A stretch of DNA of 50,080 nucleotides from the NCBI RefSeq assembly GCF_004571065.1, contig NZ_SPQN01000020.1, positions 1 through 50,080 of the forward strand, read 5' to 3'. Below, piece by piece: positions 16,118 to 49,485 of the stretch. How positions within the stretch are numbered: position 1 is the stretch's first letter; each line of letters starts with the position of its first letter. The position numbers and the translations under genes were made by a program. This stretch comes from Geodermatophilus sp. DF01-2. GTDB taxonomy: Bacteria > Actinomycetota > Actinomycetes > Mycobacteriales > Geodermatophilaceae. The notes under the pieces were generated by a model. It saw only the letters and a list, made by a program, of their open reading frames with translations. It was not told the origin of the DNA and did no database searches.

Positions 16118-16613
16118 GCAGGTCTCCTCAGGCGTGTCCCGTCGCGGCTGGGAAGTGCCGCGGACAGCCGGAAACGTAGGTCCCGTCCAGCCGTGACCGG
16201 CCCCGTCGGCGGAGGTCAGGGAGGCCCCGTCACTGGATCGTTGTGTGGGCCCCGATCAGCGGCCGACGACCCGCTCTTGCGCGCACTGCCTTGTCGACTT
16301 GCCACCCTCTGCCGAGCGTGGAACGGCTCCCGGCGGCACCCGGTCACGCCTCGCCCCGGCGGACCACCGGCGAGTCGTACCGGCGGATCGGCGCAGCGGC
16401 CGCTGGTGCGGCGAGCCGACGACGAGACGTGACGGCACACGAAGCCCCGTGGCCACCCTGTCCGGAGCCCGTGACCGCCGGCGCTCGGACAGGGCCGAGG
16501 GCAGGGCCGGCCGCGTCGGCCGGGCTCGAGGGGAGTCCTTCCCGAACGGCTCGCGCCTGTGGTGTGCTCAGCCCCGTCCTCCCCTCCCGCCACCGACCAG
16601 CGATGGAGACGCC

Positions 16614-17447
16614 GTGACCCCACCCACCACGCACCCGCAGCGGACCGTCCGGGTCGGCGACATCGCCGTCGCGGTCCAGGAGTACGGCGAGGGGGAACCG
16701 CTGCTGATCGTCAACGGGACGACCCAGTCCCTGGGCTTCTGGGCAGAGCCCGCGCCGGTCCTGGCCAGCCGCCACCGCGTGGTCACGTACGACCTGCGCG
16801 GCATGGGCGGGTCCGAGCGAGGCTCGGGAGACATCAGCGTCGCTTCGCTGGCGTCGGACGCCCTGGGGCTGCTCGAGGCGCTCGACATCGAGCGGGCACA
16901 CGTCCTGGGCTACTCCCTGGGCAGCGCCATCGCGCAGGAGCTCGCCCTGGCCGCTCCGGAGCGGGTGGCCTCGCTCGTCCTCTACTGCACCTGGGCCCGC
17001 ACCGACGGCTTCCAGCGCGCGGTGATCACAGGGCTCGCGCACCCCTGGCGCACCGGCGACCTCGAGGCCGCGCTCGGAGCCCTCGGGATCGCCTTCTCAC
17101 CCCAGCTGCTCGACAGCCCGCAGTTCGGCGAGCTGGTCGAGCAGCTGCTGCCGCTGTTCCCCAGCACCGAGCAGCAGGTCCGGACCACCGTGGAGCAGTG
17201 GGACGCCGACATGGCCCACGACACGCTGGACCGGCTCGGCGGCATCACGACGCCCACACTGGTCATCGCCGGCGAGCAGGACCTGCTCACCCCGCCGTGG
17301 CACGGCCGGCAGGTGGCCGAGTCCATCCCCGGCGCGAAGCTGCACCTGTTCACCGGCCCGGGCTCCAGCCATGCCCTCGGCGTCGAGCGCGCCGAGGAGT
17401 TCCTCCCTCTGGTGCAGGACTTCCTCGCGGAGCACCCGCTCTCCTGA
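16614..17447 (+). CDS. Alpha/beta-fold hydrolase (esterase/lipase-like), paralogue 1.
   Basis: 277 aa from a GTG. GYSLGSAIAQ nucleophile elbow (GxSxG); Asp and His blocks downstream. Near-identical in length and sequence to 38618..39451. Confidence 0.8.
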   Translation: MTPPTTHPQRTVRVGDIAVAVQEYGEGEPLLIVNGTTQSLGFWAEPAPVLASRHRVVTYDLRGMGGSERGSGDISVASLASDALGLLEALDIERAHVLGYSLGSAIAQELALAAPERVASLVLYCTWARTDGFQRAVITGLAHPWRTGDLEAALGALGIAFSPQLLDSPQFGELVEQLLPLFPSTEQQVRTTVEQWDADMAHDTLDRLGGITTPTLVIAGEQDLLTPPWHGRQVAESIPGAKLHLFTGPGSSHALGVERAEEFLPLVQDFLAEHPLS

Positions 17448-25430: not shown

Positions 25431-25503
25431 GCCCCCATCGTCTAGCGGTCCAGGACGCCGCCCTTTCAAGGCGGTAGCACGGGTTCGAACCCCGTTGGGG
25501 GCA
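25431..25503 (+). tRNA. tRNA-Glu (anticodon TTC).
   Basis: GCCCCCATCGTCTAGCGGT... with anticodon loop CTTTCAA and T-arm ACGGG-TTCGAAC-CCCGT. Confidence 0.85.
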
Positions 25504-25517
25504 CAGCACCACAGCAA

Positions 25518-25591
25518 GGCCCTGTAGCGCAGTTGGTTAGCGCGCCGCCCTGTCACGGCGGAGGTCGCGGGTTCGAGTCCCGTCAGGGTCG
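25518..25591 (+). tRNA. tRNA-Asp (anticodon GTC).
   Basis: GGCCCTGTAGCGCAGTTGGTTAGCGCG... with anticodon loop CTGTCAC and T-arm GCGGG-TTCGAGT-CCCGT. Confidence 0.85.
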
Positions 25592-25614
25592 CTCTCCGGT
25601 GGAGACACCGGGAG

Positions 25615-25688
25615 GGGCAGGTAGCTCAGTCGGTACGAGCGCTCGCCTGAAAAGCGAGAGGTCGGCGGTTCGACCCCGCCCCTGCCCA
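25615..25688 (+). tRNA. tRNA-Phe (anticodon GAA).
   Basis: GGGCAGGTAGCTCAGTCGGTACGAGCG... with anticodon loop CTGAAAA and T-arm GGCGG-TTCGACC-CCGCC. Confidence 0.85.
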
Positions 25689-25770
25689 CACATCCCCCGC
25701 GCAGGCCACCGCACCGGCCGGGCAGACTGCCGGGGTGACCGAACTCCCCACCACGCTCGCCCCCGGCGGC

Positions 25771-26213
25771 ATGGCCGTCGGACTGCGGCGGGCGACGACG
25801 GACGACGTCCCCGTGGCCCCCTCCAGGGCACCGCCCCGAGCTTGCGAGGGGTGGGGAGGAGGGGGTCCTTCTGCTACCGCCGGGCCTTCGCCGCGATCGA
25901 CGCCGATCCCGCCCAGCTGCTGCTCGCCGTCACGTACGGCCAGGACGTCGTCGGCACGATGCAGCTGACCGAGATCCCAGGGCTGTCCCGGGGCGGGGCG
26001 ACGCGGCTGGAGGTCGAGGCCGTGCGGGTGCGGTCCGACCTCCGTGGGCGCGGCATCGGCGCGGCCGTCCTCGGCTGGACCCGCGACGAGGCCCGCCGGC
26101 GCGGCTGCGGCCTCGTCCAGCTCACCACCGACACCCGGCGTCCGGAGGCGCACCGCTTCTACGAGCGGCTGGGGTTCACCGCCTCGCACGTGGGGTTCAA
26201 GCTGCAGCTGTGA
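25771..26213 (+). pseudogene. GNAT-family N-acetyltransferase with an apparent frame break at an embedded ~64-bp repeat.
   Basis: A GNAT-like N-terminus MAVGLRRATTDDVPVA is in one frame (25771 onward). The GNAT core and C-terminus (LLLAVTYGQDVVGTMQL...RGRGIGAAVLGW...HRFYERLGF) is in another frame ending at 26213. The frames switch inside 25807-25870. Confidence 0.4.
25807..25870. repeat. Copy A of a ~64-bp GC-rich dispersed repeat (gtccccgtggccccctccagggcaccgccccgagcttgcgaggggtggggaggagggggtcctt).
   Basis: Matches 48835-48898 at about 85% over 64 bp; the 40-bp core matches at 37 of 40 positions. Confidence 0.55.
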
Positions 26214-30738: not shown

Positions 30739-32247
30739 TCACCGCAGGGGCGCGCCCCACTCCGTCTCCCGGCGCAGCACCGGCTTGAGCACCTTGCCGC
30801 CGGGGTTGCGGGGCAGCACCTCCGTGCGGACCGCGACGTACTGGGGGACCTTGAAGTCCGCCAGGTGGGCGCGGGCGTGCTCGAGGACGGCCGCGACGTC
30901 GACGTCGGCCCCCGGCGTGGGGACGACGACGCAGCCGACCTTCTCCCCCATCATCGAGTCCGGCACACCGACCACCGCGACCTCGAAGACGCCGGGTGCC
31001 GCGGCGAGGACGTTCTCGACCTCGACGCAGTACACGTTCTCCCCGCCGCGGTTGATCATGTCCTTGGCCCGGTCGACGATGTAGGTGAAGCCGTCGGCGT
31101 CGATGCGGGCCAGGTCGCCCGTGCGCAACCAGCCCCCCGCGAACGCCTGCTCGGTGGCCTCCGGCTTGTTCCAGTAGCCCTGCACCACGTGGGCGCCCCG
31201 GATGAGCAGCTCTCCCACGCCGGTGGACGGGTCGACGTCGGCCAGGTCGAGGTCGACGACGGGGGCGGGGAAACCGACCGAGTCCGCGTGGGTGTCGGCG
31301 TACTCGTGCGGCAGGAAGGTGGAGATGGAGGAGGTCTCCGACAGCCCGAACCCGTTGCCGACCCGCGCCGACGGGAAGCTGCGCTTGATCGCCTGGACCA
31401 GGTCCGGGGCGATCGGCGCGCCGCCGTAGGTCGCGTACCGGACGCCGCTGACGTCGACGGAGGAGAACTCCTCCTGGCCGATCGCCAGCCAGAAGATCGC
31501 CGGCACGGTCGTGACGACGGCGATCCGCTCCTCCGGGATGACCCGCAGGAACCGCCCGACCTCGAACACCGGCATGACCACCGCCGCCGCGCCGGCCTGC
31601 AGGGTGGGCAGCAACTGGCTGTTGCAACCGGTGACGTGGAACAGCGGGACCGAGATGAGATTGCGCAGCGTCGGGTCCTCGTGCGGCAGCCCCACCACCC
31701 GGCGCGCGTTCTCCACGTTGGTCAGGAAGTTCTCGTGGCTGGTCATCGCCCCCTTGGGGAACCCGGTCGTGCCCGAGGTGTAGAAGATCGCCGCCAGGTC
31801 GCCGCGCCCCAGCCCCTCCTCCACGGTGGGCGCCCCGTCCGGCAGGGACGAGCCCGGCTCGAGCACCACCCGGGCGCCGCTGTCCTCGACGACGTAGCGG
31901 GCCTCCTCGTCGGTGAACCGGGTGTTGACCGGGACAGCGACGCCGCCGGCCATCAGGGTGCCGAGGAACCCGAGCACCCAGTCGACGCCGTTGCCGAGCC
32001 GGATCGCGACCCGGTCGCCACGACCGACCCCGGCCTCGCGCAGCCCGCCGGCCACCCGGGCGGCGGCGTCCCACAGCTCCCGGTAGGTCAGCCGCGGACC
32101 GTCGACCTCGACGACGGCCTCCGCCTCCGGATCCCGCTCGACCGACGTCCGCACCATCGCGACGACGGAGTCGGGGAGGTCGACGTAGCGCTTGACCCCC
32201 GCCGCGTCGCGCTCGATCCCCGCCTCGTCGAAGGGCCGCAGCACCAT
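30739..32247 (-). CDS. AMP-dependent synthetase/ligase (acyl-CoA synthetase).
   Basis: 502 aa; FYTSGTTGFPKGAM (AMP-binding motif), TGDLARIDADGFTYIVDRAKD. The ATG overlaps the upstream stop by 1 nt. Confidence 0.85.
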   Translation of the reverse strand: MVLRPFDEAGIERDAAGVKRYVDLPDSVVAMVRTSVERDPEAEAVVEVDGPRLTYRELWDAAARVAGGLREAGVGRGDRVAIRLGNGVDWVLGFLGTLMAGGVAVPVNTRFTDEEARYVVEDSGARVVLEPGSSLPDGAPTVEEGLGRGDLAAIFYTSGTTGFPKGAMTSHENFLTNVENARRVVGLPHEDPTLRNLISVPLFHVTGCNSQLLPTLQAGAAAVVMPVFEVGRFLRVIPEERIAVVTTVPAIFWLAIGQEEFSSVDVSGVRYATYGGAPIAPDLVQAIKRSFPSARVGNGFGLSETSSISTFLPHEYADTHADSVGFPAPVVDLDLADVDPSTGVGELLIRGAHVVQGYWNKPEATEQAFAGGWLRTGDLARIDADGFTYIVDRAKDMINRGGENVYCVEVENVLAAAPGVFEVAVVGVPDSMMGEKVGCVVVPTPGADVDVAAVLEHARAHLADFKVPQYVAVRTEVLPRNPGGKVLKPVLRRETEWGAPLR

Positions 32248-33233
32248 CAGTACGCCCCCACGTTCTCGAAGTAGCGCCGCGGGTTGGCCACCAGCATGGT
32301 CTCGATCTGCTCCTCGGTGACCCCGTGCTGTCGTAGGTACGGGAGCACCTCCTCGTGGATGTGCGTGTAGTGCCACTGCGGGAGCAGGTCCATGACCCCC
32401 GGCGCGAGCCAGTCGATGTAGCAGGAGGCGTCCTGCGACAGCACCATCTGCTCCGCGTACCCCCGGCGGCACATCTCCACGACGATGTCGGCCCGCGCCT
32501 CGAACGTGGTGTCCAGGTTGATGCCGAACCGGTCCATCCCCAGGACGAAGCCCGCCTCGGCCAGCTCCGAGAGGTGGTCGGCGTCGGTGGTGTCGCCGCT
32601 GTGACCCAGGACGACGCGCCGCGGGTCGACGCCCTCGTCGTCGAGGACCTCCTTGGCCGCCAGCCCCTGCCGGCTGCCGGGGTGCGTGTGCACGGTGATC
32701 GGGACCCCGGTCGCGCGGTGCGCCTTGGCGACGGCGCGCATCACCCGCTCGACACCGGCGGTCATGCCCTGGTGGTCGATGGCGCACTTGAGGACGCCGG
32801 CCCGCACTCCTGTGCCGGCGATGCCGTTCTCGATGTCGCCCACGAACATGTCGACCATCGGGTCGGGCACCTCGGCGCCGACGGCCTCGTTCAGCGCCGG
32901 GCCCCGGTAGTGGAAGAAGAACGGGACGTCGTCGTATGTGTAGCAGCCGGTGGCCACGACGATGTTGAGGTCGACCTGCTCGGCGATCCGCTGGATCCGG
33001 GGGATGTAGCGACCCAGCCCGATGACCGTCGGGTCGACGATCGTCCGGACGCCCGTGCCGGCCAGCTTGCTGAGTTTCGCCACCGCGTCGGCGACCCGGT
33101 CGTCCTCGCTGCCCCACTCCTCCGGGTAGTTCTGCTGCACGTCGGCGTTGAGCACGAAGACGTGCTCGTGCATGAGGGTCTGGCCGAGCTCGGCGGTGTC
33201 GACGGGGCCCTTGACGGTCTGGACCTGGGGCAC
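32247..33233 (-). CDS. Phosphotriesterase-family (PTE/PHP-like) metal-dependent hydrolase.
   Basis: 328 aa from a GTG after AGGAGG; TLMHEHV (His-x-His), ...VHTHPG..., ...LGHSGD... characteristic of the PTE family. Confidence 0.8.
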   Translation of the reverse strand: MPQVQTVKGPVDTAELGQTLMHEHVFVLNADVQQNYPEEWGSEDDRVADAVAKLSKLAGTGVRTIVDPTVIGLGRYIPRIQRIAEQVDLNIVVATGCYTYDDVPFFFHYRGPALNEAVGAEVPDPMVDMFVGDIENGIAGTGVRAGVLKCAIDHQGMTAGVERVMRAVAKAHRATGVPITVHTHPGSRQGLAAKEVLDDEGVDPRRVVLGHSGDTTDADHLSELAEAGFVLGMDRFGINLDTTFEARADIVVEMCRRGYAEQMVLSQDASCYIDWLAPGVMDLLPQWHYTHIHEEVLPYLRQHGVTEEQIETMLVANPRRYFENVGAY

Positions 33234-33250
33234 GGTTCTCCTCCTGGGGG

Positions 33251-34312
33251 TCAGCGGCCGGCGCGGCGCCGGGCGATCGCGGTGGACAGCGCGACGGCGA
33301 TGATGAGCGCCGCGCCGTTGAACGTAGGCTGCACCCAGTCCGCTGCCCCCGCCAGCACCAGGCCGTTGACGCTGACGGCGACGAAGAGCACCCCCAGCAG
33401 GGTGCCGACCACGTTGAAGGTGCCGGGCTTGATCGCCGTCGCCCCCAGGAACGCGGCGGACAGGGCGGCCAGTGTGAACCCGGGTCCCACCGCCGGATTG
33501 GCCGTGCCAGCCCGGGCCAGCAGCAGGACGCCGGCGACCCCGGCCAGGCCGCCGGACAGCACGAAGCTCGACAGGACGTACCGGTCGACCCGCAGGCCGA
33601 CCAGCCGGGCCGAGCCCGGGCTGACCCCGACCGAGGTCAGGTAGCGACCGTACGGGGTCTGCGTGAGGACGTACCAGACGGCGAACGCGACGACGGCGAG
33701 CGTGAAGACCGTCCGCGGCAGCCCGAGCCAGGTACCCGAACCGAGCGCCGTGATGCTCTCGGGGATGCCGATGCTGATGACCTGGTTGGCGGTGTAGAGG
33801 GAGATCAGCCCGGCGACCAGCGTGGCCGTGCCCAGCGTCGCGATGAGCGCGTTGACCCCGATCCGCGCGACGAGCACGCCGTTGAAGAGCCCGACCAGGC
33901 AGCCGGAGAGGACGCCGAGGCCGATCGCCACAGCGACCGGCAGGTCGTGCTCGGCGGCCGCACTCGCGGTGACGATCGAGGAGAGCCCCACCACGGACCC
34001 GACGGACAGGTCGAACTGCCCGCAGGTGAGCGGGATGATCGAGGCGAGCGCGGTGATCGCGATGACCGCCTCGTTGCCGAGGATGTTGCGCCAGTTGGCC
34101 GAGCTCGCGAACGTGCCGCTCGTCGGCTCGTAGACGCTGAAGAACAGGCACAGCAGCAGGAACAGGATCAGCAGCGCGTACCGCTCGACGAACGGCATGG
34201 CCCGGGCGGTCCACGGTGCGGGTGGCCCGGTGACCGGGGTCTCCGACCGGATGGCGTCGCTGTCGGTGGCCGGGACCTGCTCCGAGGTCTCCTGGGTGGA
34301 GCCGGTCGTCAT
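33251..34312 (-). CDS. Sugar ABC transporter permease (ribose/xylose-type, CUT2).
   Basis: 353 aa, ~9 TM helices; the ATG overlaps the ATPase stop (ATGA). Confidence 0.8.
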   Translation of the reverse strand: MTTGSTQETSEQVPATDSDAIRSETPVTGPPAPWTARAMPFVERYALLILFLLLCLFFSVYEPTSGTFASSANWRNILGNEAVIAITALASIIPLTCGQFDLSVGSVVGLSSIVTASAAAEHDLPVAVAIGLGVLSGCLVGLFNGVLVARIGVNALIATLGTATLVAGLISLYTANQVISIGIPESITALGSGTWLGLPRTVFTLAVVAFAVWYVLTQTPYGRYLTSVGVSPGSARLVGLRVDRYVLSSFVLSGGLAGVAGVLLLARAGTANPAVGPGFTLAALSAAFLGATAIKPGTFNVVGTLLGVLFVAVSVNGLVLAGAADWVQPTFNGAALIIAVALSTAIARRRAGR

Positions 34313-35835
34313 GCGGGGACCTCCGCGGTCAGGTAGGAGAGCTCGGTGAGACGGTCAGCGGTGATGTCGGGAGCACGCAGCTCGGCGGCCACCCGACCCT
34401 CGCGCAGGACGACGACCCGGTCGGCGACGTGCGCCATCTCCTCGAAGTCCGAGGTCACGAGCAGGACGGCGGTGCCGCGGTCGGCCGCGGCCCGCACGTG
34501 GGTGTAGATGTCCGCGCGGGCGTTGACGTCGACGCCCTGGGTCGGCTCGTCGAGCAGCAGGACCGCGGGCTCGCGGCGCAGCCAGCGGCCCAGGACGACC
34601 TTCTGCTGGTTGCCGCCGGACAGCGTGCCGGCCGGCGGCAGGTCGCTGGCCGGCTTGACCCCGTAGCGGTGCACGAGCCGGCGGGCGTCGTCGCGCTCGG
34701 CGCGGTGCCGGAGCCGCCCGCGGCGCCAGTAGGAGGGGACGACGGTGGCCGACAGGTTCGCGCGCACAGACATGCCGGCGAACAACCCCTCCGCCCCCCG
34801 GTCCTCGGGGACGAGGGCGAGCCCGGCCCGCATCGCCTCGCGCGGCCCGCGGACCCGCAGCGGCCGGCCGTCCAGCAGGAGCTCGCCGGAGGTCGTGGGG
34901 AGGTCACCGAACAGTGCGTGCAGCAGCTCGGTGCGCCCGGACCCCAGCAGACCGGCGACGCCGAGCACCTCCCCGCGGTGCAGCTCCAGGTCGACGCCCC
35001 GCAGTGGCCCGGCAACCAGACCGCGCACCGACAGCGCAACCTCGCCCGGCGGTGCGGTACGCGGCTCCGGGAAGACCCGGTCCAGCGGTCGCCCGACGAT
35101 CATCTCGACCAGCCCGGACTCGGTCATCCCGGACACCGCGCGCGACCCGACCACGTGCCCGTCGCGCAGCACGGTGACCGTGTCCGCCAGGCCGAGGACC
35201 TCGCCCAGCCGGTGGCTGACGTACACGATGGTCTGGCCGGCCTCCGCATAGCGGCGCAGCGCCGTGAGCAGGACCTCGACCTCCCAGGCGGGGAGCGAGG
35301 CGGTGGGCTCGTCCAGCACGAGGACGCCGTCGTGGGCGTCCTCCTGGTCCTGCAGCGCGCGGGCGATGGCCACCATGACCCGGTCGGCCGGCCGCAGGGC
35401 CGCCACCGGCATGTCCGGCGTCGCCGGGATGGAGAAGCGCTCCAGCACCTCGGCAGTGCGCCGGCGGGTCGCCCTCCGGTCGATGCGGCCGGTCCGGCCG
35501 GTCACGAACCCGTGCCCGATGGCGATGTTCTCCGCGACGCTGAGCGCAGGGAAGACCGCCGGGTCCTGGTGCACGAAGTGCAGCCCGTGCTGCCTGGCCA
35601 CCTCGGCCGACCAGCGCTCGGCCGGCGTCGACGCCCCTCCGACGGAGATCGTGCCGCCCGGGTCGGCCCGGTGGACGCCGGCGAGCAGCTTGACCAGCGT
35701 CGACTTCCCCGATCCGTTCCCGCCGAGCAGCGCGTGCACCTCGCCCCGGCCGACCGCGAGCGAGGCGTCGGTGAGGACCGTCGTCGGGCCGAAGGTCTTG
35801 CTCAGCCCGGAGGCGTGCAGGACGACGTCCGGCAC
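34309..35835 (-). CDS. Sugar ABC transporter ATP-binding protein with tandem ABC domains.
   Basis: Two Walker A sites (GGNGSGKST; LLGSGRTE), signature LSGGNQQK, Walker B LLLDEPT. The start was set at the GTG giving MPDVVLHASGLSKTFG; the ORF-track N-terminal extension overlaps the binding-protein gene. Confidence 0.75.
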   Translation of the reverse strand: MPDVVLHASGLSKTFGPTTVLTDASLAVGRGEVHALLGGNGSGKSTLVKLLAGVHRADPGGTISVGGASTPAERWSAEVARQHGLHFVHQDPAVFPALSVAENIAIGHGFVTGRTGRIDRRATRRRTAEVLERFSIPATPDMPVAALRPADRVMVAIARALQDQEDAHDGVLVLDEPTASLPAWEVEVLLTALRRYAEAGQTIVYVSHRLGEVLGLADTVTVLRDGHVVGSRAVSGMTESGLVEMIVGRPLDRVFPEPRTAPPGEVALSVRGLVAGPLRGVDLELHRGEVLGVAGLLGSGRTELLHALFGDLPTTSGELLLDGRPLRVRGPREAMRAGLALVPEDRGAEGLFAGMSVRANLSATVVPSYWRRGRLRHRAERDDARRLVHRYGVKPASDLPPAGTLSGGNQQKVVLGRWLRREPAVLLLDEPTQGVDVNARADIYTHVRAAADRGTAVLLVTSDFEEMAHVADRVVVLREGRVAAELRAPDITADRLTELSYLTAEVPA

Positions 35836-35852
35836 GCCTCCGCTGCCAGCGG

Positions 35853-37067
35853 TCAGGACAGGCCCCAGATGCGCCGGTAGTTGGCCTCGTAGTCCTGCGT
35901 CGGCTTGCCCTCCTCGTCGATGTTGCCGTCGTAGAAGGTCGTCTCCGTCGGCAGGGAGGGGGAGGAGGTGTCGAGGGTCTGCAGGCCGATGCCTGGGTCG
36001 ACCTGCTCCTCGCCCTGCAGGAGCCGGTTCATGCCGTCGATCGCGGCCCAGCCGACCCAGCGGGCGGGGGCGCCGGCGATCATGTCCTGGCCCTTGCCCT
36101 CGCGGACGAACCCGATGTTGGGCGACAGCCCCTCGCCACCGGTGACCAGCAGCTCGTCGTCGCGGCCCGAGGCCGTCACGGCCTGCGCGATGCCGAGGGT
36201 CAGCGCCGCGTCGTAGGGGACGTAGACGACGTTGGCGTCCGGGTGCTGGGTCAGCGCGGCCGCGGCCTTGGCCCGCAGCTGCCCGGTGGCCAGGTCGGTC
36301 AGCGTGAAGGGGACCTGCGCGACGATCTCGCACCCGCCACACGGCTCGAGGTGACGCGCGAACCCCTTGTACAGGTGCTGGGCGACCAGGATGTCGTCCT
36401 CGATGAACTGGATGACCTTCGCCTGGCCGTCGGTCTCCGCGATCACGTAGTCCGCGACGCTCTTGGAGTAGACGTCCTCGACCTGCTCGGCGTAGGTGCG
36501 CCCCTCCTCGTACTGCAGTTCGGCGTCGAAGAGCGGCTCGCCGCCCTCGCCGAGCAGCGGGTCGTCGCAGTCGAGCGAGTAGAAGGCGTAGATCGGGATC
36601 CCCGCGGCCTTGGCCTCCTCGAGCGCGCTCTTGGCCGCGACGCAGTCGACGACGTCGAGGATGATCCCGTCGGCCTGGTCGGCGATCGCCGTGCGGATAC
36701 CTTCGGCGAATCCGTCCGGGGTGCCCTTGCCGTCGAAGACGGTCACGTCCCAGCCGAGCGCCTCGCCCGCCTCCTTGGCTCCGGCAGCGGGTGCCGAGCA
36801 CCCCTCACCGGCCTCCAGGCACGAGATGACCCAGATGTTCTGGTCGGGGAGGGGAGCCGGGGAGCTGTCGGGCAGGGCGCGGTCGGTGCCGCGACGGTTC
36901 TGCTCGACGGCGGCCTGGGCTTCGGCGACGATCTCGCTGTCGGTGCCGGAACCCTCCGCGCCGGCGCCGGCCTCGGCGTCGGCTTCGGAGCCACCGCAGG
37001 CCGCGACGAGTGAGAGAGAGGCCACGGCGGCGAGAGCCGCGAGACGGGACCGTGGGGATCGGGACAC
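35853..37067 (-). CDS. Sugar ABC transporter substrate-binding lipoprotein.
   Basis: Signal peptide with lipobox (SLSLVAACGG); periplasmic-binding-fold composition. GTG start after GAGGAGGAG. Confidence 0.8.
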   Translation of the reverse strand: MSRSPRSRLAALAAVASLSLVAACGGSEADAEAGAGAEGSGTDSEIVAEAQAAVEQNRRGTDRALPDSSPAPLPDQNIWVISCLEAGEGCSAPAAGAKEAGEALGWDVTVFDGKGTPDGFAEGIRTAIADQADGIILDVVDCVAAKSALEEAKAAGIPIYAFYSLDCDDPLLGEGGEPLFDAELQYEEGRTYAEQVEDVYSKSVADYVIAETDGQAKVIQFIEDDILVAQHLYKGFARHLEPCGGCEIVAQVPFTLTDLATGQLRAKAAAALTQHPDANVVYVPYDAALTLGIAQAVTASGRDDELLVTGGEGLSPNIGFVREGKGQDMIAGAPARWVGWAAIDGMNRLLQGEEQVDPGIGLQTLDTSSPSLPTETTFYDGNIDEEGKPTQDYEANYRRIWGLS

Positions 37068-37231
37068 AGACTCCTCCTCGACGCAGCACGACCGGCCGCG
37101 AGTGGCACGAGTGTGTCCAGGACCACTCCGAGGGGGCAGGGGTTGTGCTCCTACCCTTGAGGACGCGACTGTGTGAGGGGTCACACTGGACGGGTGACGA
37201 TCCGCCGCTCCCACCGCCAGCCGAGGAGACC

Positions 37232-38509
37232 GTGAGCAGCCTCTCCCCGGTCCTGTCGCCGTCGCCCCCACCCCCGCCGCCCGACCTGGTGCAGGCCGTC
37301 TACCGCCGGCTGGGTGAGGCAGTGCGGCGCATGCTCACCGGGTTCGTCGAGGAGATCCCCTTCTACCGCCGGCTGCCCGAGGAGCAGCTCCGCGGCGAGA
37401 TCGCGCAGGTGTGCCGGGACAACATGGCGGCCTTCGTGCGCTGCTGCCGCGAGGATCGGCTGCCTGCGCACGGCGAGCTCACCGCGGCCTCGGCAGGCGC
37501 GGCCCGCCGGGCCGAGGAGGGGGTGCCGCTAGACGCCGTCCTGATGGCGTACGTGATCGGCAACCGGGTGACGTGGCAGATGCTCGTCGAGCAGGTTCCC
37601 CGTGGGTGCGAGGCGCAGGTGGCGGGCTTCACCGAGTACCTCCAGCGCTACCTGCAGGCGATGCTGCAGGCGGTCACCGAGGCCTACATGGAGGAGCGAC
37701 GGTCCATCGAGCACCACGAGGGTTCGGCCTGGCGCAGCCTCGTACAGGACGTGCTCGACGGCCGGACGCCGGCCGCACTCGCGCAGCGGCTGGGCGTCGT
37801 GATCGCCGAGGCCTACCTCGTGGTGTCGCTCCACGTGGGAGCGACCGACGACGAACGCGACGAGGCCGTCGACCCCGAGGTGGCCGGACGGCGGAAGGTC
37901 CGGCGGGTGCAGGCGGTGGTCGACCGGCTGCCCGGGCGTGCGGCCACCTTGTCGTCGCTGTCCCCGGCCGGCGGTCTGGTGCTCCTGCCCGGCACGGCGA
38001 CACACCTGCCCGGCCCCGCGGAGACCGCGCAGGTGGTGCAGCTGCTCGGCCGGGCGGCAGGAGCGCAACCCACGGCCGTCGCCGTGCCGGCGACGTCCCT
38101 GACCGCGCTGCCCGCTGCGGCAGGCCAGGCCCGCGAGCTGCTGCACCTGGTCCGGCTCCTCGGCCGTCCGGCCGGCCTGTACTCCTCCGACGACCTCGTC
38201 CTGGAGCACCAGTACGCCCAGCCCGGACCGGCCCGCGAGCGGTTGGCCGCGCTGCTCGAACCGTTGACCGCACACCCCGAGCTGCTCACCACGGCCCGGT
38301 GCTGGCTGGCACACGAGCGCAGCCGGCGGGACACTGCCGAGGCGCTCCACGTCCACCCCAACACCCTGGACAAGCGACTGGACCGGATCGTGGCCCTGAC
38401 CGGCGTCCAGCTCTCGACCAGCCGGGGGGTGGGGCTGCTGCAGGCGGGGCTGGTCGCCCTGCAGATGCAGCAGGTGGACGGCGGGACGCTCCCGGGCCTC
38501 GAGGTCTGA
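37232..38509 (+). CDS. PucR/CdaR-family transcriptional regulator.
   Basis: C-terminal PucR-type HTH (ARCWLAHERSRRDTAEALHVHPNTLDKRLDRI). The start is uncertain (GTG after GGAGA). Confidence 0.7.
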   Translation: MSSLSPVLSPSPPPPPPDLVQAVYRRLGEAVRRMLTGFVEEIPFYRRLPEEQLRGEIAQVCRDNMAAFVRCCREDRLPAHGELTAASAGAARRAEEGVPLDAVLMAYVIGNRVTWQMLVEQVPRGCEAQVAGFTEYLQRYLQAMLQAVTEAYMEERRSIEHHEGSAWRSLVQDVLDGRTPAALAQRLGVVIAEAYLVVSLHVGATDDERDEAVDPEVAGRRKVRRVQAVVDRLPGRAATLSSLSPAGGLVLLPGTATHLPGPAETAQVVQLLGRAAGAQPTAVAVPATSLTALPAAAGQARELLHLVRLLGRPAGLYSSDDLVLEHQYAQPGPARERLAALLEPLTAHPELLTTARCWLAHERSRRDTAEALHVHPNTLDKRLDRIVALTGVQLSTSRGVGLLQAGLVALQMQQVDGGTLPGLEV

Positions 38510-38617
38510 CCGAGCTGTGCGGTCGCCATCCGGGGCTGGCTCCGGGACCCCGGATGTGGTGGAGTGCGCCACACCGTCCGCCGTAACAGAACGGCGGAGC
38601 GTTGCAGGGGAGGCCCG

Positions 38618-39451
38618 TTGAGCGCACCGACCGTCCACGACGCCCGCACCGTCCAGGTCGGCGACATCGCCGTCGCCGTGCAGGAGTACGGAGACGGAGA
38701 CCCGCTGCTCATCGTCAACGGCACCAGCCAGTCGCTGGGCTTCTGGACCGAGACCGCTCAGGTCTGGGCGAGCAGCCACCGGGTCATCACCTACGACCTG
38801 CGGGGCATGGGTGGCTCCGAGCGCGGCGCGGGCGAGATCAGCGTCAGCACGTTGGCCGCCGATGCGCAGGGGCTGCTCGAGGCGCTGGGCATCGAGCGGG
38901 CGCACGTCCTCGGTTACTCCCTGGGCAGCGCCGTCGCCCAGGAGCTCGCCCTCACCGCGCCGGAGCGGGTGGCCTCGCTGGTCCTGCTGTGCACCTGGGG
39001 ACGGACCGACGGCCTGCAGCGGTCGGTGTTCACCGCGCTGGCCCATCCCTGGCGCACCGGCGACCTCGAGGCCGCCCTCGGGGCGCTGGGGATGGCGTTC
39101 TCCCCGCAGCTGCTCGACAGCCCGGAGTTCGGGGCGCTGGTCGAGCAGCTCCTGCCGCTGTTCCCGAGCACGGAGGCCCAGATGGCCACGACCGCCGAGC
39201 AGTGGGATGCCGACATCGCCCACGACACCCAGGACCGGCTCGGGAGGATCGCCGCCCCGACCCTCGTCGTGGCCGGCGAGCAGGACCTGCTGACCCCGCC
39301 GTGGCAGGGACAGCGCGTCGCCGAGCAGATCCCGGGAGCGCGGCTGGAGATGTTCACCGGCCCGGGGTCCAGCCACGCCCTCGGCGTCGAGCGTGCCGAG
39401 GAGTTCGTCCCCATGGTGCTCGAGTTCCTCGGCCAGCACCGCCTCTCCTGA
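38618..39451 (+). CDS. Alpha/beta-fold hydrolase, paralogue 2.
   Basis: 277 aa from a TTG after GGGGAGG; GYSLGSAVAQ. Roughly four of five residues are identical to 16614..17447 by eye over the full length, with similarly high nucleotide identity. Confidence 0.8.
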   Translation: MSAPTVHDARTVQVGDIAVAVQEYGDGDPLLIVNGTSQSLGFWTETAQVWASSHRVITYDLRGMGGSERGAGEISVSTLAADAQGLLEALGIERAHVLGYSLGSAVAQELALTAPERVASLVLLCTWGRTDGLQRSVFTALAHPWRTGDLEAALGALGMAFSPQLLDSPEFGALVEQLLPLFPSTEAQMATTAEQWDADIAHDTQDRLGRIAAPTLVVAGEQDLLTPPWQGQRVAEQIPGARLEMFTGPGSSHALGVERAEEFVPMVLEFLGQHRLS

Positions 39452-39512
39452 CCCGCCGCCGCTCCTGACCCTGCGCCGTAGCCCCGGAGTGCTCCCGGAC
39501 TACGGCGCAGGG

Positions 39513-40448
39513 TCAGCCCTCGGCGAGGAACTCCAGGGCGCGCGGGATGCCCGAGGGGCCGGCAACCGTGGACAACCGCGCTCCGGACGCCGCGGCGAAG
39601 GCCCGGGCCTCCACCGCGTCGTCCGCCGGTGCCACGACGACGAGTTCCTCGAGTCGGCGCGCGTAGGGAACCGGGTCGGGGCCGCTCGTCGGCCGGCCGT
39701 CCGACAGCAGGACGGTCAGCCGGCGAGGTGCCACCGACCGCTCGAGCTGGGCCCGTGCGGTGTCCAGCGCGTGCGCGAGGTCGGTGAGCCCGTGTCCGCG
39801 CAACTGCAGCAGGTCGTCGACCACGGCTGCGGCCGGCCGGGGCCGGTCCTGGGATTTGACCACGATCGCCCGGTCGCTGAACGCCACGACGCTGTAGTCG
39901 TCCGGGGCGCGCAGCGCCACGGCCGCCGCGGCCAGCGACGCCGCTGCCAGGCGTGCACCGCCCACCGACCCGCTGCGGTCCACGAGCAGGCACAGGGCGG
40001 TCGCCGGCCTCGCCCACGCGGTGCCGCGCAGGTCCTCCACCGCTGGCGGCTGCCCGCTCGCGGCCGCCGTGAGCAGCGCGTCGAGACTGCCCTCGACGTC
40101 GAGGTCCCCGCCCGGCTCCAGCCGGATCCGGCGCAACCTCCCGATGCCGCGCTGCCGCGCCGGCCCCCGGCGCCCCAACCGCACCGCCACCCGGCCGGCG
40201 AGCCGGCGGGCCAGGGCGCGCAGCCGCGGGTCAGTGGCTCCGGCCATGTCGGCGAGCAGACCGAGGGCCGCGTCGGGGTCCGCAGCCAGCGCGTCCTCGA
40301 AGGCCGTCTCGTCGAGCTCCCCGAGCCGCGGGGACAGCTGCTCGAACACCGGCGCCCGCGCCAGATCCCGGCGGGAGGTCGTGCGACGCCCGGCCTCGGC
40401 GATCTCGGCCTGTGCGTCCTCGCCCTCGAGGGTCAGGTCGGGGCGCTG
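39513..40448 (-). CDS. von Willebrand factor A (VWA) domain protein.
   Basis: MIDAS-like LLVDRSGSVGG; partner of the upstream MoxR ATPase. The start was set at an internal GTG (VQRPDLTLEG) overlapping the MoxR 3' end. Confidence 0.65.
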   Translation of the reverse strand, partial: QRPDLTLEGEDAQAEIAEAGRRTTSRRDLARAPVFEQLSPRLGELDETAFEDALAADPDAALGLLADMAGATDPRLRALARRLAGRVAVRLGRRGPARQRGIGRLRRIRLEPGGDLDVEGSLDALLTAAASGQPPAVEDLRGTAWARPATALCLLVDRSGSVGGARLAAASLAAAAVALRAPDDYSVVAFSDRAIVVKSQDRPRPAAAVVDDLLQLRGHGLTDLAHALDTARAQLERSVAPRRLTVLLSDGRPTSGPDPVPYARRLEELVVVAPADDAVEARAFAAASGARLSTVAGPSGIPRALEFLAEG

Positions 40449-41431
40449 CACCCCGGTGGGGTCTGGGCCGGCCGGGCCCGGCGGTACGCCGGGCCCGGCC
40501 GGCGGGCTTCCCCCGGGGCCTCGTCCTCCTCCGCGCCCGGCGGGGGCGGCCCGAAGACCTGGGCCCACAGCTCCCGGACGACGTCCTCGGCGGTGCGGGA
40601 CGACCCTTCCTGCATCCGGAGGCGTCCAGAAAGGGCAGTGAGGGCCGCGTCGAGCGAGACGGCCGGGTCGACCGGCGCGGCCTTCCGCAGCCCGGCCAGT
40701 GCGGCGGCCACCAGGACCAGGTCGATGGCCCCGCGCACGGAGGAGCCGACCCGCACGTCCGGGTGCGACCGCGTGCGGCGGACCAGGTCCACCACCTGTG
40801 CCCGAAACCCGTCGTCCACCGCCACCCGCGCGGCGTTGCGACGGACGATCTCCGTCTCGTCCTCGGCGTCCTGGTAGTCCATCCGGACGCGGCAGGTCCG
40901 GTCGTAGATGGCCGAGGCGATCCGGGCGGTGCCGACGGCATCGAACGGGTTCATGGCCGCAACCAGCCGGAACCCGTCGGCCGCGACGAGCCGCCCCAGC
41001 CGCGGCACGTGCAGCTCCCCCTCGCTCATCACCGTGATCAGGACGTTGAGCGTCTCCTCCGGAACGCGGTTGATCTCCTCCACGTACAGCAGGGCGCCAC
41101 TGCGCATGGCCGCGCTGAGCGGCCCGTCGACGAAGACCTCCTCGGCGTAGCCCTCGCTCATGACCCTCGAGGGGTCGTGGTGGCCCACCAGCCGGGCGGG
41201 TGTCAGCTCGGCGTTGCCCTCGACGAACTCGAACGGCAACCCTGCCGCCTGCGCCAGCCCGCGCAGCAACGTGGACTTGCCCGTGCCCGGCGGCCCCTCC
41301 AGGAGCATGTGCCGGCCGGCCAGCAGCGCGGCGAGGACCAGCTCGACCTCGCGGCGCCGTCCGACCACCTGCTCCCGCAGGCGGTCGGACAGCGCGGCGT
41401 CGAGCCCGACGCCGCCCTCCGGAGCGGTCAG
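40433..41431 (-). CDS. MoxR-family AAA+ ATPase.
   Basis: VVGRRREVELVLAALLAGRHMLLEGPPGTGKS (Walker A), ALLYVEEINRVPEETLN (Walker B region), AAMNP sensor. The exact start is unclear: the in-frame candidates are a CTG at 41431 after GAGGAGG, or a GTG at 41368. Confidence 0.7.
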   Translation of the reverse strand: MTAPEGGVGLDAALSDRLREQVVGRRREVELVLAALLAGRHMLLEGPPGTGKSTLLRGLAQAAGLPFEFVEGNAELTPARLVGHHDPSRVMSEGYAEEVFVDGPLSAAMRSGALLYVEEINRVPEETLNVLITVMSEGELHVPRLGRLVAADGFRLVAAMNPFDAVGTARIASAIYDRTCRVRMDYQDAEDETEIVRRNAARVAVDDGFRAQVVDLVRRTRSHPDVRVGSSVRGAIDLVLVAAALAGLRKAAPVDPAVSLDAALTALSGRLRMQEGSSRTAEDVVRELWAQVFGPPPPGAEEDEAPGEARRPGPAYRRARPAQTPPGCSAPT

Positions 41432-42564
41432 TAGTCCTCCTCGCCGTACATGATCACGCCGCGGACGTTCTTGCCGGCGAGCATGTCGGCGTAGCCCTGG
41501 TTGATGTCCTCGAGGCGGTAGGTCTTGGTGATCAGCTCGTCGAGCTTGAGCTGACCCTCCTGGTAGAGCCCCAGCAGCTTGGGGATGTCGAAGCGGGGGT
41601 TGGCGCTGCCGAAGATCGAGCCCTGCAGCCGCTTCTGCATCATCGCCAGGTCGAACAGGCTCAGGCTGACGTCCGAGGCGGTCATGTCGCCCATGCCGGT
41701 CACGACCCCGGTGCCGTTCTTCTTGATCAAGGCCATCATCTCGGCGATCTGGGCGCCCTCGATCCGGCCGACGGTGATGATGGCCTTGTCCGCCATCTTC
41801 CCGCGGGTGAGCTCCCGCAGCGGTTCCACGGCCTCCTCCATGCTGGCGAAGGTGTGGGTCGCCCCGAGCGCCATGGCCTGCTCGCGCTTGAACTCCACCG
41901 GGTCGATGGCGACGACCCGCTTGGCGCCGGCCAGGGCGGCGCCCTGCACGGCGTTGGACCCGACGCCGCCGATGCCGATGACCACGACGGTGTCCCCGGC
42001 CTCGACTTGGGCGGCGTAGACCGCCGAGCCCCATCCGGTCGTCACGCCACAGCCGACCAGCGCCGCCTTGTCCAGCGGGATGTCCTCGTCGATCTTGATG
42101 ACCGACGACTCGTGGGCCACCACGTACGGCGAGAAGGTGCCGAGCAGGCACATGGTGGCGGCGTCCTTGCCGTTGACGTGCGCCCGGTAACCGCCGTCGG
42201 CGATCATCTGGCCGGTGATCAGCGTGGCCCCGTTGTCACACAGGTTCTGGTGCCCGGTCGAGCAGGACTCGCAGCGGCCACACGCCGGGATGAAGCCGAG
42301 GACGACGTGGTCGCCCTCTTTCAGGCTGGTCACCCCGGGGCCGACCTTGTCGATGATGCCGGCGCCCTCGTGCCCGCCGATGAACGGGAAATCGCCGGGC
42401 GGGAGGATTTGGATGTCCCCCTCCCGGATGTGCTCGTCGGAGTGGCACATCCCCGAGGCGGCCAGCTTGATCCGCACCTCCCCGGCCACCGGGTCGTCGA
42501 GCTCGACCTCCTCGATCTGCCAGTCCTGGTGCGTTCCCCAGAGCACTGCGGCCTTCGTCTTCAC
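41428..42564 (-). CDS. Zinc-dependent alcohol dehydrogenase (NDMA-dependent / class III-like).
   Basis: MKTKAAVLWG...GMCHSDEH...GHEGAGII (catalytic Zn), CGRCESCSTGHQNLC (structural Zn), GIGGVG (Rossmann). 378 aa. Confidence 0.85.
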   Translation of the reverse strand: MKTKAAVLWGTHQDWQIEEVELDDPVAGEVRIKLAASGMCHSDEHIREGDIQILPPGDFPFIGGHEGAGIIDKVGPGVTSLKEGDHVVLGFIPACGRCESCSTGHQNLCDNGATLITGQMIADGGYRAHVNGKDAATMCLLGTFSPYVVAHESSVIKIDEDIPLDKAALVGCGVTTGWGSAVYAAQVEAGDTVVVIGIGGVGSNAVQGAALAGAKRVVAIDPVEFKREQAMALGATHTFASMEEAVEPLRELTRGKMADKAIITVGRIEGAQIAEMMALIKKNGTGVVTGMGDMTASDVSLSLFDLAMMQKRLQGSIFGSANPRFDIPKLLGLYQEGQLKLDELITKTYRLEDINQGYADMLAGKNVRGVIMYGEEDY

Positions 42565-42684
42565 CGGTTCTCCTCACGGACGGGGTGAGTCTCCTCACAT
42601 CGTCGGCGACGGTAACCAGAGCGCGCCGGCTAGACAACGGCACCCCGTTGCGAGGGCCGGACGCACCACACCGGGACCGACCGG

Positions 42685-43287
42685 TCAGGACGGTCCCTCG
42701 ATGAGCGCCCGCTGCAGCCGGTTGGCGGTGTCGACATCGGGCACCCGGTTGGCGAGGACGTCGGCATAGAGGAACGACTCGCCGATGCGGACGAGCGCGA
42801 ACGCGAGCGCACCGGGCTCGGCGAGGAGGGGCAGGCCGGCGTCCTCCGCATCGCGCCGAAGCAGCGCCTCCACCGCGGCGACGACGCCGGACTGGATCGC
42901 GCCCCTCGGGTCGGTCAGCACGCGGATGGTCAGCGCGGGCTCCTGGTCCAGGAGCCGGCGTAGAGCCGGGGCCGACGAGACAGCCTCGTTGAACATCCGG
43001 ATGACGCCGACCGAGCGCAGCCCGCCGTCGGGTGCGAGGTCCCACTGCCGCTCCGCCGCGGCGAAGGTCCGCCGGGTGAGCAGCCACAACGCCGCACCGA
43101 GCACGGCCTCGCGGCCCCCTGCGTGCCGGAAGAGGGTCACCCGCGAGATCCCGAGCTCGGCCGCGAGCGCCTGCATATCCAGCCGCCGACCGTGGACGAG
43201 CCACTCGGCAGCCAGCTCGTGCGCTCGCGCGGCGAGAGCGCCTGAAACAGAGTCCTTGACTGTTTCAGGCCTCTCGGGCAGCGTCAT
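42685..43287 (-). CDS. TetR/AcrR-family transcriptional regulator.
   Basis: N-terminal HTH (LAAELGISRVTLFRHAG); divergent from the flavin monooxygenase at 43420. Confidence 0.75.
   Translation of the reverse strand: MTLPERPETVKDSVSGALAARAHELAAEWLVHGRRLDMQALAAELGISRVTLFRHAGGREAVLGAALWLLTRRTFAAAERQWDLAPDGGLRSVGVIRMFNEAVSSAPALRRLLDQEPALTIRVLTDPRGAIQSGVVAAVEALLRRDAEDAGLPLLAEPGALAFALVRIGESFLYADVLANRVPDVDTANRLQRALIEGPS
43241..43269. promoter_or_regulatory. Perfect palindrome cctgaaacag-N9-ctgtttcagg, lower GC than its surroundings, 18-46 nt inside the annotated 5' end of the TetR gene.
   Basis: Read directly from the sequence; likely the TetR operator. Confidence 0.4.
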
Positions 43288-43419
43288 GGCACAGATCACA
43301 CTTCCGGTCGTTCGCGGGGCCGCAGCCGGTCATCGACGACCTCAGCAGCCGGCGCGCCCCGTCGGCAAGACCGTCTCTCCCCGGGCGGCAGGCCAGGGGA
43401 CCCTTCCCCGAGGAGTGTC

Positions 43420-44892: not shown

Positions 44893-44933
44893 CCGGGCGC
44901 TGGCGCCCGTCCGCCCCGCGCCAGGGACGGGCG

Positions 44934-48749: not shown

Positions 48750-48834
48750 GGTCCCCGGCGCGGGGAGGTCCCAGGTGCTGCGCGGGTCGGCCGGGGTGCT
48801 CACGTTCGGCACGGTAGCCGCCGGCCCCCTGCAG

Positions 48835-48898
48835 GGTCCCCGGCCCCGTCCCGGGTCCCGCCCCGAGCCTGCGAGGGGTGGGGAGGACGGGGTCCTCT
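48835..48898. repeat. Copy B of the ~64-bp GC-rich dispersed repeat, followed by a degenerate second half-unit (48899-48930).
   Basis: gtccccggccccgtcccgggtcccgccccgagcctgcgaggggtggggaggacggggtcctctt matches 25807-25870. It sits in the divergent intergenic region between the MBL gene and the lipoprotein gene. Confidence 0.55.
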
Positions 48899-48959
48899 TA
48901 CGAGGGGCGGGGAGCAGGGGGCCCTCTTCCGGGGCGCGACCGGCGGATACCGTCGATGC

Positions 48960-49478: not shown

Positions 49479-49485
49479 GAGAGGC

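Follow-up and report, generated by a model that had tools for sequence, protein, structure and literature searches.

Results

A hairpin repeat in a Geodermatophilus contig

The window, the whole stretch of DNA analyzed here, is a 50,080-bp contig of Geodermatophilus sp. DF01-2 with a G+C content of ~75% and a uniform composition along its entire length. It carries three full copies and one split copy of a short G+C-rich repeat (Table 1). Copy A interrupts a GNAT acetyltransferase gene 123 nt downstream of a tRNA-Phe gene, with no overlap between repeat and tRNA. Copy B lies, as originally predicted, between divergent genes, one for a metallo-beta-lactamase-fold protein on the minus strand and one for a lipoprotein on the plus strand. 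The lipoprotein and M23-peptidase genes converge, and copy C fills the 59 nt between their stop codons. A Pfam search of all genes found no transposase gene in the window.

Table 1. Copies of the repeat in the window and the two parts of the interrupted GNAT gene (CM, covariance model).
Feature	Position	Strand	Description
GNAT N-terminal remnant	25735-25815	+	..TTLAPGGMAVGLRRATTDDVPV; alignable to residues 1-27 of P0003 and P0004, both intact 160-aa orthologues
Copy A	25812-25873	+	Type 1: GGCCCCCTCC AGGGCACCGCCCCGAGCTTGCGAGGGGTGGGGA GGAGGGGGTC CTTCT; inside GNAT gene; CM match 77.8 bits, E=8e-15
GNAT C-terminal part	25875-26213	+	YRRAFAAIDADP...GFKLQL*; Pfam Acetyltransf_1, E=2e-15
Outer copy, 5' half	48822-48840	+	CGGCCCCCTGCAGGGTCCC; split by copy B
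Copy B	48841-48900 (CM match 48839-48900)	+	Type 1, nested in the outer split copy; CM match 78.3 bits, E=6e-15
Outer copy, 3' half	48901-48930	+	CGAGGGGCGGGGAGCAGGGGGCCCTCTTCC; stretch after copy B
Copy C	49477-49538	-	Type-2-like, near-perfect hairpin; CM match 46.8 bits, E=4e-8

A repeat search within the window aligned positions 25815-25884 with 48842-48911 at 81% identity over 70 nt, and a 26-mer common to copies A and B (CCGCCCCGAGCYTGCGAGGGGTGGGG) occurred exactly twice, with no occurrence expected (0 of 100 shuffles). The original prediction of a G+C-rich repeat at these two places, 23,027 bp apart in direct orientation, was thus borne out. Its estimate of 37 matching positions in a 40-nt core caught the strong similarity and slightly understated it, as direct counting gave two differences over ~39-40 nt. 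Over 55 nt, copy A is also 100% identical to a copy from a different Geodermatophilus genome (L009), where the locus is unrelated.

The repeat had been described as present twice in the window, with a degenerate repeat of the 3' half of copy B lying next to it. The latter sequence is instead the 3' half of an outer copy; in the predicted fold it pairs with the 19 nt just 5' of copy B, and copy B was therefore inserted into another copy. Copy C, the third full copy, was first recognized because copy B aligned in inverted orientation with 49494-49536, and its predicted fold has an energy of -61.9 kcal/mol (z=-4.85). A covariance-model scan of the window returned the three full copies only (78.3, 77.8, and 46.8 bits); one plus-strand match of 20.7 bits was an echo of the palindromic copy C, and the remainder scored 12.5 bits or less.

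Copy A replaced part of a GNAT gene

The two GNAT reading frames are out of register. The N-terminal frame (..DDVPV) stops at 25815 and the C-terminal frame (YRRAF..) begins at 25875, so that the frame switches at copy A, as had been proposed. Uninterrupted 160-aa orthologues exist in related strains: those of G. obscurus, G. poikilotrophus, Geodermatophilus sp. URMC 65, and many metagenomic sequences read ..DDVPALVALLTDDPLGRHRESPDLAPYRRAF.. and lack copy A. The C-terminal part of the window gene is 87-88% identical to these intact orthologues. When intact and window DNA are aligned, the flanks are 86-93% identical, and between GACGACGTCCCC and TACCGC there are 66 nt in the intact gene and 62 nt, corresponding to the element, in the window. 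As 66 nt gave way to 62, the downstream frame is shifted. The alignments show copy A to have overwritten part of the GNAT gene, leaving an apparent frameshifted pseudogene. The gene is disrupted, as first suggested, but by replacement of its sequence and not by simple addition.

The same interruption was present in three metagenomic contigs (L117, L118, and L119). In L119, 68 nt lie between the two flanking motifs; this allele retains six more nucleotides of the gene at the left junction, which corresponds to replacement of ~56 nt of the gene by an element of ~58 nt. The junction at the GNAT site has a GG overlap and no target-site duplication, and 56-62 nt of the target are missing. Synonymous divergence (dS) between L117 or L118 and intact alleles is 0.02-0.08 vs 0.2 between L117 or L118 and the window, and the interrupted alleles are not one another's closest relatives. 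This pattern suggests that recombination spread the interrupted patch, that the polymorphism is long-standing, or that insertion occurred repeatedly. Between L117 and L118, the closest pair of interrupted alleles, there are one synonymous and eight non-synonymous changes, which is consistent with a decaying GNAT gene.

The repeat is a covarying hairpin

Position-wise frequencies in 116 instances showed conservation from ~22 nt before to ~15 nt after the core, giving an element of 58-62 nt with (N)CGGCCCC at its 5' end and GGGGTCCTTC at its 3' end. The type 1 consensus, which covers copies A and B, is GGCCCCGTCC AGGGCACCGCCCCGAGCYTGCGAGGGGTGGGGA GGACGGGGTCC; that of type 2 is GGCCCCCTGC AGGGTCCCGCCGCGAGCCTGCGAGTGGTGGGGG GCAGGGGGTCC; and further variants carry other inner stems. 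Every copy is predicted to fold as one long imperfect hairpin. Its outer stem of 10-11 bp pairs GGCCCC and a variable stretch of 3-5 bp with the complement of that stretch and GGGGTC, and has a G.T wobble that is conserved. It is followed by a short internal loop (AGGG), then a conserved inner stem of CCCGCC(N) with (N)GG(Y)GGG, an invariant apex (CGAGCYTGCGAG), and, after the helix, a pyrimidine-rich trailer, CTTC(N). The imperfect hairpin originally predicted, ccgcccc with ggggtgg, is therefore present but is far shorter than the actual one, in which it is enclosed by the outer stem (GGCCCC...GGGGTC). There is no U-tract, as the tail reads CCTTCNTCA, and for this reason a simple terminator scan made no call at copies A, B, or C.

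The stems covary, as several measurements show. First, RNAalifold applied to 53 copies predicted an outer helix of 10 bp and an inner one of 7 bp, and in 9 of these 17 pairs both partners showed changes. Second, 97.4% of the alignment cells were paired, compared to 83.0% in shuffles (0/500 reached the observed value) and 46-59% when partners were slid by 1-3 columns; cells changed on both sides numbered 119, compared to 41.8 in shuffles and 5-19 after sliding by 1-3 columns. Third, in a comparison that does not depend on the alignment, the uninterrupted helix formed by the two arms of the same copy had a mean length of 9.2 (mode 11), compared to 6.5 for arms taken from different copies. Finally, 78 copies contained 45 distinct outer stems. 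Conservation is found at the stem base (GGCC/GGTC), in the internal AGGG, and in the apex, and the 3-5 bp in the middle of the outer stem vary (GTCC/GGAC, CTGC/GCAG, CTCGC/GCGAG, GCTGC/GCAGC, GGTGC/GCACC, and others). G.U pairs recur often at particular positions, and A.C oppositions are nearly absent; one strand, the one written here, is therefore the pairing strand.

The family is abundant in Geodermatophilaceae

We determined the range of the family with a 20-mer common to three cores of the window (CGAGCYTGCGAGKGGYGGGG), using one genome per species. The 20-mer was found in at least 115 genome blocks from dozens of Geodermatophilaceae genomes. Among the matches listed, nearly all came from Geodermatophilus, Blastococcus, Modestobacter, Klenkia, and Goekera, and several genomes gave 6-8 blocks each; the remaining listed blocks were from a few unclassified actinobacterial metagenome-assembled genomes (MAGs), one record labeled UNVERIFIED_ORG, and three Bacteroidales MAG blocks. 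In 2.9 million viral contigs the 20-mer occurred once only, within a helicase gene and without the hairpin, as a chance coding match. The family is abundant and, in the sample searched, confined to the Geodermatophilaceae lineage.

A covariance model (R1) found 157 copies in 735 kb of pattern-selected blocks, ~54 of them beyond its seeds. It also found three copies in 20.5 kb of Geodermatophilus sp. URMC 65 (L122), a stretch chosen by synteny and not by pattern. This stretch, together with the 3-4 copies in the 50-kb contig, gives a density of ~1 copy per 7-17 kb, which by extrapolation would amount to hundreds of copies per genome. In one instance, a copy at the end of a contig runs into adapter sequence. 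The original prediction had described a small dispersed repeat or miniature insertion element and not a coding feature, to be abandoned if the genome held no further copies; many were found across Geodermatophilaceae, and the 115 or more blocks and the model matches support that description.

In the window, only tRNAs passed the Rfam gathering thresholds. With E-values of up to 10 admitted, the matches were spurious ones to miRNA hairpins, far under threshold, and no terminator-type family matched at the elements. As a literature search found no described repeat of this kind in Geodermatophilaceae, the family has apparently not been described so far.

Copies lie mostly at the 3' ends of genes

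For 68 clean copies, we called the coding strands of the flanking genes from codon-position G+C. Left and right genes were -,- at 30 copies, +,- at 25, +,+ at nine, and -,+ at four, and the gene on the 3' side converged on the element in 55 of the 68 cases (81%). Copies thus lie overwhelmingly at the 3' ends of genes. A typical junction reads GGTCC-TTCN-TCAG. The converging stop codon was no more than 12 nt from the end of the helix in 41/68 copies and exactly 5 nt away in 26, was written TCA in 32 cases, CTA in five, and TTA in four, and was separated from the trailer by 0-6 nt. When copies were anchored at their GTCC end, YYYN-TCA followed in 39/112, and the next base was G in 38 of these 39, corresponding to CTGA on the coding strand; in element-free genes, C precedes TGA in 61% of 515 TGA-terminated reading frames. 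The TCAG beside the trailer could be an extension of the element consensus rather than a target.

On the 5' side, the stop codon of a same-strand gene is often directly next to the G that opens the helix or shares that base with it (TGA-GG, TA-GG). One subfamily has a conserved 5' leader, GGTGACGTGCTGGAAC, which, read in the direction of the flanking genes, lies between the hairpin and the next gene's ribosome-binding site and start codon. Orthologous proteins kept their C-termini whatever the subtype or orientation of the adjoining element, as seen for PWHV* (L002 and L089) and IGGC*/ISGC* (window and L122). Because C-termini are retained beside differing elements, it seems that the host, and not the element, supplies the stop codons. 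One C-terminus was a residue shorter where an element abutted it, reading ELMTG* in URMC 65 vs ELMTGT* in the window.

Between co-directional genes, the element was antisense to the genes in 30 of 39 pairs. Most of these mRNAs would carry the strand with A.C mismatches, and a simple function as an RNA hairpin therefore fails to explain the strand asymmetry. Orientation relative to local GC skew, a weak proxy, showed no bias (51 vs 57) and lends no support to a mechanism based on single-stranded DNA of the lagging strand.

Copies come and go, nest, and form arrays

Copies of the family come and go at orthologous sites. Filled and empty versions are known at the GNAT site, at site B, and at a PBP/GMC junction. 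Site B is empty in L122, L123, and L124, where the entire 48822-48930 block is absent and the intergenic region measures 51-58 nt; ~11-15 nt present in these three sequences are missing from the window, and there is no duplication. The duplication that the original prediction had suggested looking for is accordingly absent at both the GNAT site and site B, and target sequence has been lost at each. Site C, next to the M23-peptidase stop codon, was occupied in 5/5 genomes compared; the element points one way in the window, L123, and L125, which carry differing subtypes, and the other way in L122 and L124. Orthologous sites elsewhere differ in subtype (L002 vs L089) or in copy number. Flank-to-flank BLAST among the 115 or more blocks gave only pairs of filled sites that differed in subtype or copy number, and empty sites were obtained from orthologues of the window's own genes. 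The observation of target loss without duplication rests on few events, as only two clean comparisons of filled and empty sites define junctions.

Copies of the family also nest inside one another. Copies were found in the apex or loop of other copies in L015, L032, L035, L054, L056, L063, and L122 (6078-6171), the first six of which repeat the nested architecture of site B, and nested copies had the same orientation as the host copy. Most copies are single, and others form direct tandem arrays with periods of 49, 52, or 67 nt. Arm identity was 0.667 for copies within a genome vs 0.657 between genomes, near-identical pairs made up 0.8%, and no genome-specific subfamilies or bursts were seen among the copies compared. 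Since copies sharing a genome resemble one another no more than they resemble copies from other genomes, there is no sign of a recent burst or a dominant master copy, and the population is old and diverse.

Discussion

Relation to known systems

The copies make up a well-defined repeat family that is positioned with unusual precision relative to stop codons and that has clearly destroyed a gene in one case. Like an intrinsic (Rho-independent) terminator, the element is a G+C-rich hairpin just past genes and often between converging genes. Unlike such a terminator, it has no U-tract, its sequence is conserved across sites, and co-directional pairs mostly place the weaker (A.C) hairpin in the mRNA. 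MIRU elements are also actinobacterial intergenic repeats, of ~50-100 bp and often in tandem within operons; they have a set orientation with respect to the flanking genes and abut stop and start codons at their ends. MIRU elements are not long hairpins, however, and carry short reading frames, whereas the Geodermatophilaceae repeat is defined by a covarying hairpin and most of its copies are single.

By comparison of their descriptions, REP elements and mycobacterial TRIT would be the closest analogues, and we would class the repeat as a family of a known kind that belongs to neither REP-RAYT nor TRIT. It resembles the REP, BIME, and REPIN sequences of RAYT/TnpA-REP systems (Nunvar 2010; Bertels and Rainey 2011; Di Nocera 2013, PMC3733652) in being a high-copy extragenic imperfect palindrome with one strand marked by mismatches, in forming clusters, and in its long persistence in a lineage. 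REP ends often supply stop codons. The differences are several. The element has 58-62 nt and two stacked stems, compared to 20-40 nt for REP, and its position-wise frequencies contain no GTAG/CGTC tag (as defined in PMC3733652). Its direct tandem arrays and nested copies lack the alternation or inverted doublets of BIME and REPIN, and there is no dominant master sequence as in REPIN or MITE populations. Its host is actinobacterial, and the two REP surveys consulted make no mention of Geodermatophilaceae. Because it is roughly twice as long, lacks GTAG/CGTC, and is differently organized, we do not assign it to REP-RAYT.

TRIT, as described in the parts of the RNIE paper used here (Gardner et al., 2011; PMC3152330), is a conserved, Mycobacterium-restricted hairpin with 147 copies and a very narrow position relative to stop codons, for which a factor was suggested. 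The likeness to that description is considerable: both are hairpins restricted to an actinobacterial lineage, conserved in sequence and structure, largely palindromic, present in more than 100 copies, and tied to gene termini at a very narrow distance from the stop codon. The same description sets the two apart by host, Mycobacterium vs Geodermatophilaceae, and by position, as TRIT starts at about -8, inside the coding sequence, whereas the Geodermatophilaceae trailer ends 0-6 nt past the stop codon. Insertion polymorphism, nesting, and gene disruption, documented here, form no part of that account of TRIT.

A probable mobile hairpin

We consider it likely that copies A, B, and C and the split copy are members of a lineage-wide family of structured palindromic repeats that behaves as a non-autonomous insertion element. 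Such an element would be moved in trans. It would be recognized as a single-strand hairpin, on the wobble-carrying strand, and would have a preference for joining beside 5'-CTGA-3', a stop codon together with the C before it. Insertion would create no target duplication and would often remove some of the neighboring target DNA. We infer this route of spread because single-strand-hairpin insertion fits the preferred pairing strand, the presence/absence polymorphism, nesting in the apex, the lack of duplication at two sites, and the CTGA preference. At gene ends, the hairpin may persist as harmless or may be useful as a barrier at transcript ends, and insertions like copy A would be rare accidents. 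The opposite orientation in co-directional pairs could be selected against; it would put the stronger hairpin followed by UCCUUCUUCA into the mRNA and might terminate transcription within operons.

Searches for the machinery were limited in extent. Using E. coli RayT as a tblastn query against ~0.9 Mb of loci and the window, we found no match below E=0.38, in a sample far too small for exclusion. A search of ~0.9 Mb for an autonomous parent, with the two halves separated by kilobases, found only nested or variant copies, and a loose pattern for the 5' half mostly matched coding DNA.

A more specific proposal, which we regard as speculative and rather doubtful, is that the hairpin homes to the stop codon (5'-CTGA-3') in either orientation and replaces its target, with an enzyme reading the CGAGCYTGCGAG apex on one strand. 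If correct, this would be the first REP-like system in Actinomycetota with a tag and machinery of its own, and it would offer a mechanistic account of the narrow stop-codon spacing of TRIT.

Alternative explanations

There is a real possibility, although we would not favor it, that the repeat is a functional gene-end motif like TRIT, a conserved hairpin of RNA or DNA that serves to mark the 3' ends of transcripts or to bind a dedicated factor, is maintained by selection, and is copied from one gene end to another by recombination or gene conversion instead of transposition, with copy A as a by-product of recombination. This explanation and the insertion of a mobile hairpin overlap and are not exclusive; they differ in the route of spread and in the reason for retention. 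The narrow distribution relative to stop codons, which recalls that given for TRIT in the part of the RNIE paper cited above (PMC3152330), suits a gene-end motif, as do the invariant apex, the maintained pairing, and the lack of intragenomic bursts. Orthologous sites that stay filled while subtype and orientation switch are what conversion would give, and at the GNAT site sequence was replaced, not added. Conversion requires flanking homology, however, and the GNAT site has none. Termination lacks a U-tract and a call by the terminator scan at any copy, and selection for it predicts none of the copies in a divergent promoter (B), within a gene (A), nested, or in tandem. Moreover, TRIT predictions in M. 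tuberculosis overlap just 2-4% of mapped termination sites (10.1101/2022.06.01.494293), so that even TRIT lacks proof of function.

Descent from a DDE-type insertion sequence is improbable. Here, the repeat would be a classical MITE, a deletion derivative with terminal inverted repeats that is moved by the parental transposase with target-site duplication. The ends of a palindromic element are indeed inverted repeats. Many DDE elements have TG...CA termini, and the TGA...TCA that bounds many copies recalls them. The expected duplication, however, is missing from the GNAT site and from site B, where 56-62 nt and ~11-15 nt of target, respectively, have been lost; the ~0.9 Mb searched held no halves separated by a kilobase-scale insert; and the middle of the stem covaries, which binding of double-stranded ends by a transposase does not require.

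We rejected the reading of copies A and B as att-like direct repeats around a 23-kb island beside the tRNA-Glu/Asp/Phe cluster, which is very improbable. The direct orientation of the copies, the proximity of copy A to tRNA-Phe, and the absence of 30.7-44.9 kb of the interval from Geodermatophilus sp. URMC 65 would suit an island. Nevertheless, copies A and B do not flank the variable 14-kb segment, the genes between them are housekeeping or metabolic with no integrase, excisionase, or phage gene, Pfam found neither integrase nor transposase in the window, composition is uniform, the repeat and the tRNA do not overlap, and the same sequence is dispersed over many other loci throughout the family's range (at least 115 blocks; 157 copies in 735 kb).

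Finally, chance similarity in 75% G+C DNA, which inflates spurious repeats and accounts for most repeat families found in the window, and a peptide shared by copies A and B are both refuted, the former by 0/100 matching shuffles and covariance-model E-values of ~1e-14, and the latter, raised with the original prediction, because copies occur in both orientations, are mostly extragenic and non-coding, and have compensatory changes in their stems.

Significance

Short, conserved hairpins at gene ends are common, and their spread and function have been settled for very few families; TRIT, the closest actinobacterial analogue, is still without a demonstrated function. The Geodermatophilaceae family offers unusually clear material: its apex is sharply defined, its stem covaries, and its spacing to CTGA is exact; it occurs both nested and in tandem, and sequenced strains include filled as well as empty alleles. 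Its tandem arrays could serve as typing markers for desert- and stone-dwelling actinobacteria. The elements probably also break assemblies. Annotation is affected as well: at the GNAT locus, NCBI annotates a 120-aa product (P0001) whose start, by our reading, is the GTG at 25851, inside copy A, and similar 120-aa calls occur in other assemblies.

The interrupted GNAT alleles

In the source annotation, the interrupted GNAT gene of the window is represented by a 120-aa 'GNAT family N-acetyltransferase' (P0001; window 25851-26213), whose GTG start lies within the repeat and in which the fold is missing its first strand and helix. Equivalent 120-aa calls are present in three other assemblies (P0009, P0020, and P0023). 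For two other interrupted alleles, L117 and L118, dS in flanking coding sequence was 0.02-0.08 relative to intact alleles (L116 and L120) but 0.2 relative to the interrupted allele of the window, placing them nearer to the intact alleles. Judged from these sequence comparisons, the interruption would be either an old polymorphism that has been moved by recombination or a change with more than one independent origin. A tRNA cluster lies just upstream of the gene, and no sign of an integrated element was found at this cluster.

Locations of repeats and neighboring features in the window and in fetched genome blocks (L-numbers)
Feature	Location	Strand	Remarks
DUF222-domain protein	window 3-1709	-	
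Paralogous alpha/beta-hydrolase genes (two)	window 16245-17447 and 38564-39451		
tRNA-Glu(ttc), tRNA-Asp(gtc), tRNA-Phe(gaa) cluster	window 25431-25689		upstream of GNAT gene
Variable segment	window 30739-44900		acyl-CoA synthetase, phosphotriesterase-family protein, ABC transporter, PucR, alpha/beta hydrolase, VWA and MoxR proteins, alcohol dehydrogenase, TetR, one unknown protein
Hairpin GGCGCCCGTCC-GCCCCGCGCCAG-GGACGGGCGTC	window 44899-44936		adjoins GMC oxidoreductase stop codon
GAACCC/GAGCCC hexanucleotide run	window 49974-50038		contig end; in 5' part of M23 peptidase gene (-)
20-mer matches, Bacteroidales MAG Kf353_bin105	L020 3211-3230; L038 3391-3410; L060 3661-3680 and 7500-7519		
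Broken-off element copy, G. chilensis NODE_227	L112 ~6789-6850		runs on as ...CTTATACACATCTGACGCTGCCGACG
Partial element arrays	L016 2700-2910; L025 ~6990-7200		

A variable segment and a possible remnant hairpin

Geodermatophilus sp. URMC 65 lacks the variable segment (~14 kb) in its syntenic region; there, the GMC oxidoreductase gene directly follows the PBP gene, with a nested element pair in between (L122 6078-6171). Copies A and B do not border this segment. The hairpin beside the GMC oxidoreductase gene of the window scored only 10.7 bits with the covariance model of the element; because its arms are similar to the type-1 outer stem, it may be an element copy that has lost its former inner part.

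Broken and partial copies in other genomes

At the end of its contig, the G. chilensis copy breaks off into what we take to be Nextera adapter sequence, apparently an artefact of assembly, which suggests that element hairpins break assemblies. The arrays of L016 and L025 repeat the element's 5' half alone, together with the leader GGTGA(C/G)GTGCTGGAAC, ahead of one complete copy; these arrays are partial tandem duplications. The 20-mer core pattern also matched a Bacteroidales MAG, where it forms a small G+C-rich hairpin within AT-rich DNA, with a Flavo-1 RNA motif (RF01705) match immediately 5' of it in L038 and at the first of the L060 sites. This occurrence is probably coincidental, although the hairpin and the actinobacterial element have the same 12-nt apex.

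Other repeats in the window

DUF222 is the domain found in the actinobacterial multi-copy REP13E12/HNH-type family, and the DUF222-domain gene of the window contains three 54-nt tandem repeats (437-652). The alpha/beta-hydrolase paralogues share 79% identity over 300 nt at a separation of 22,004 bp.
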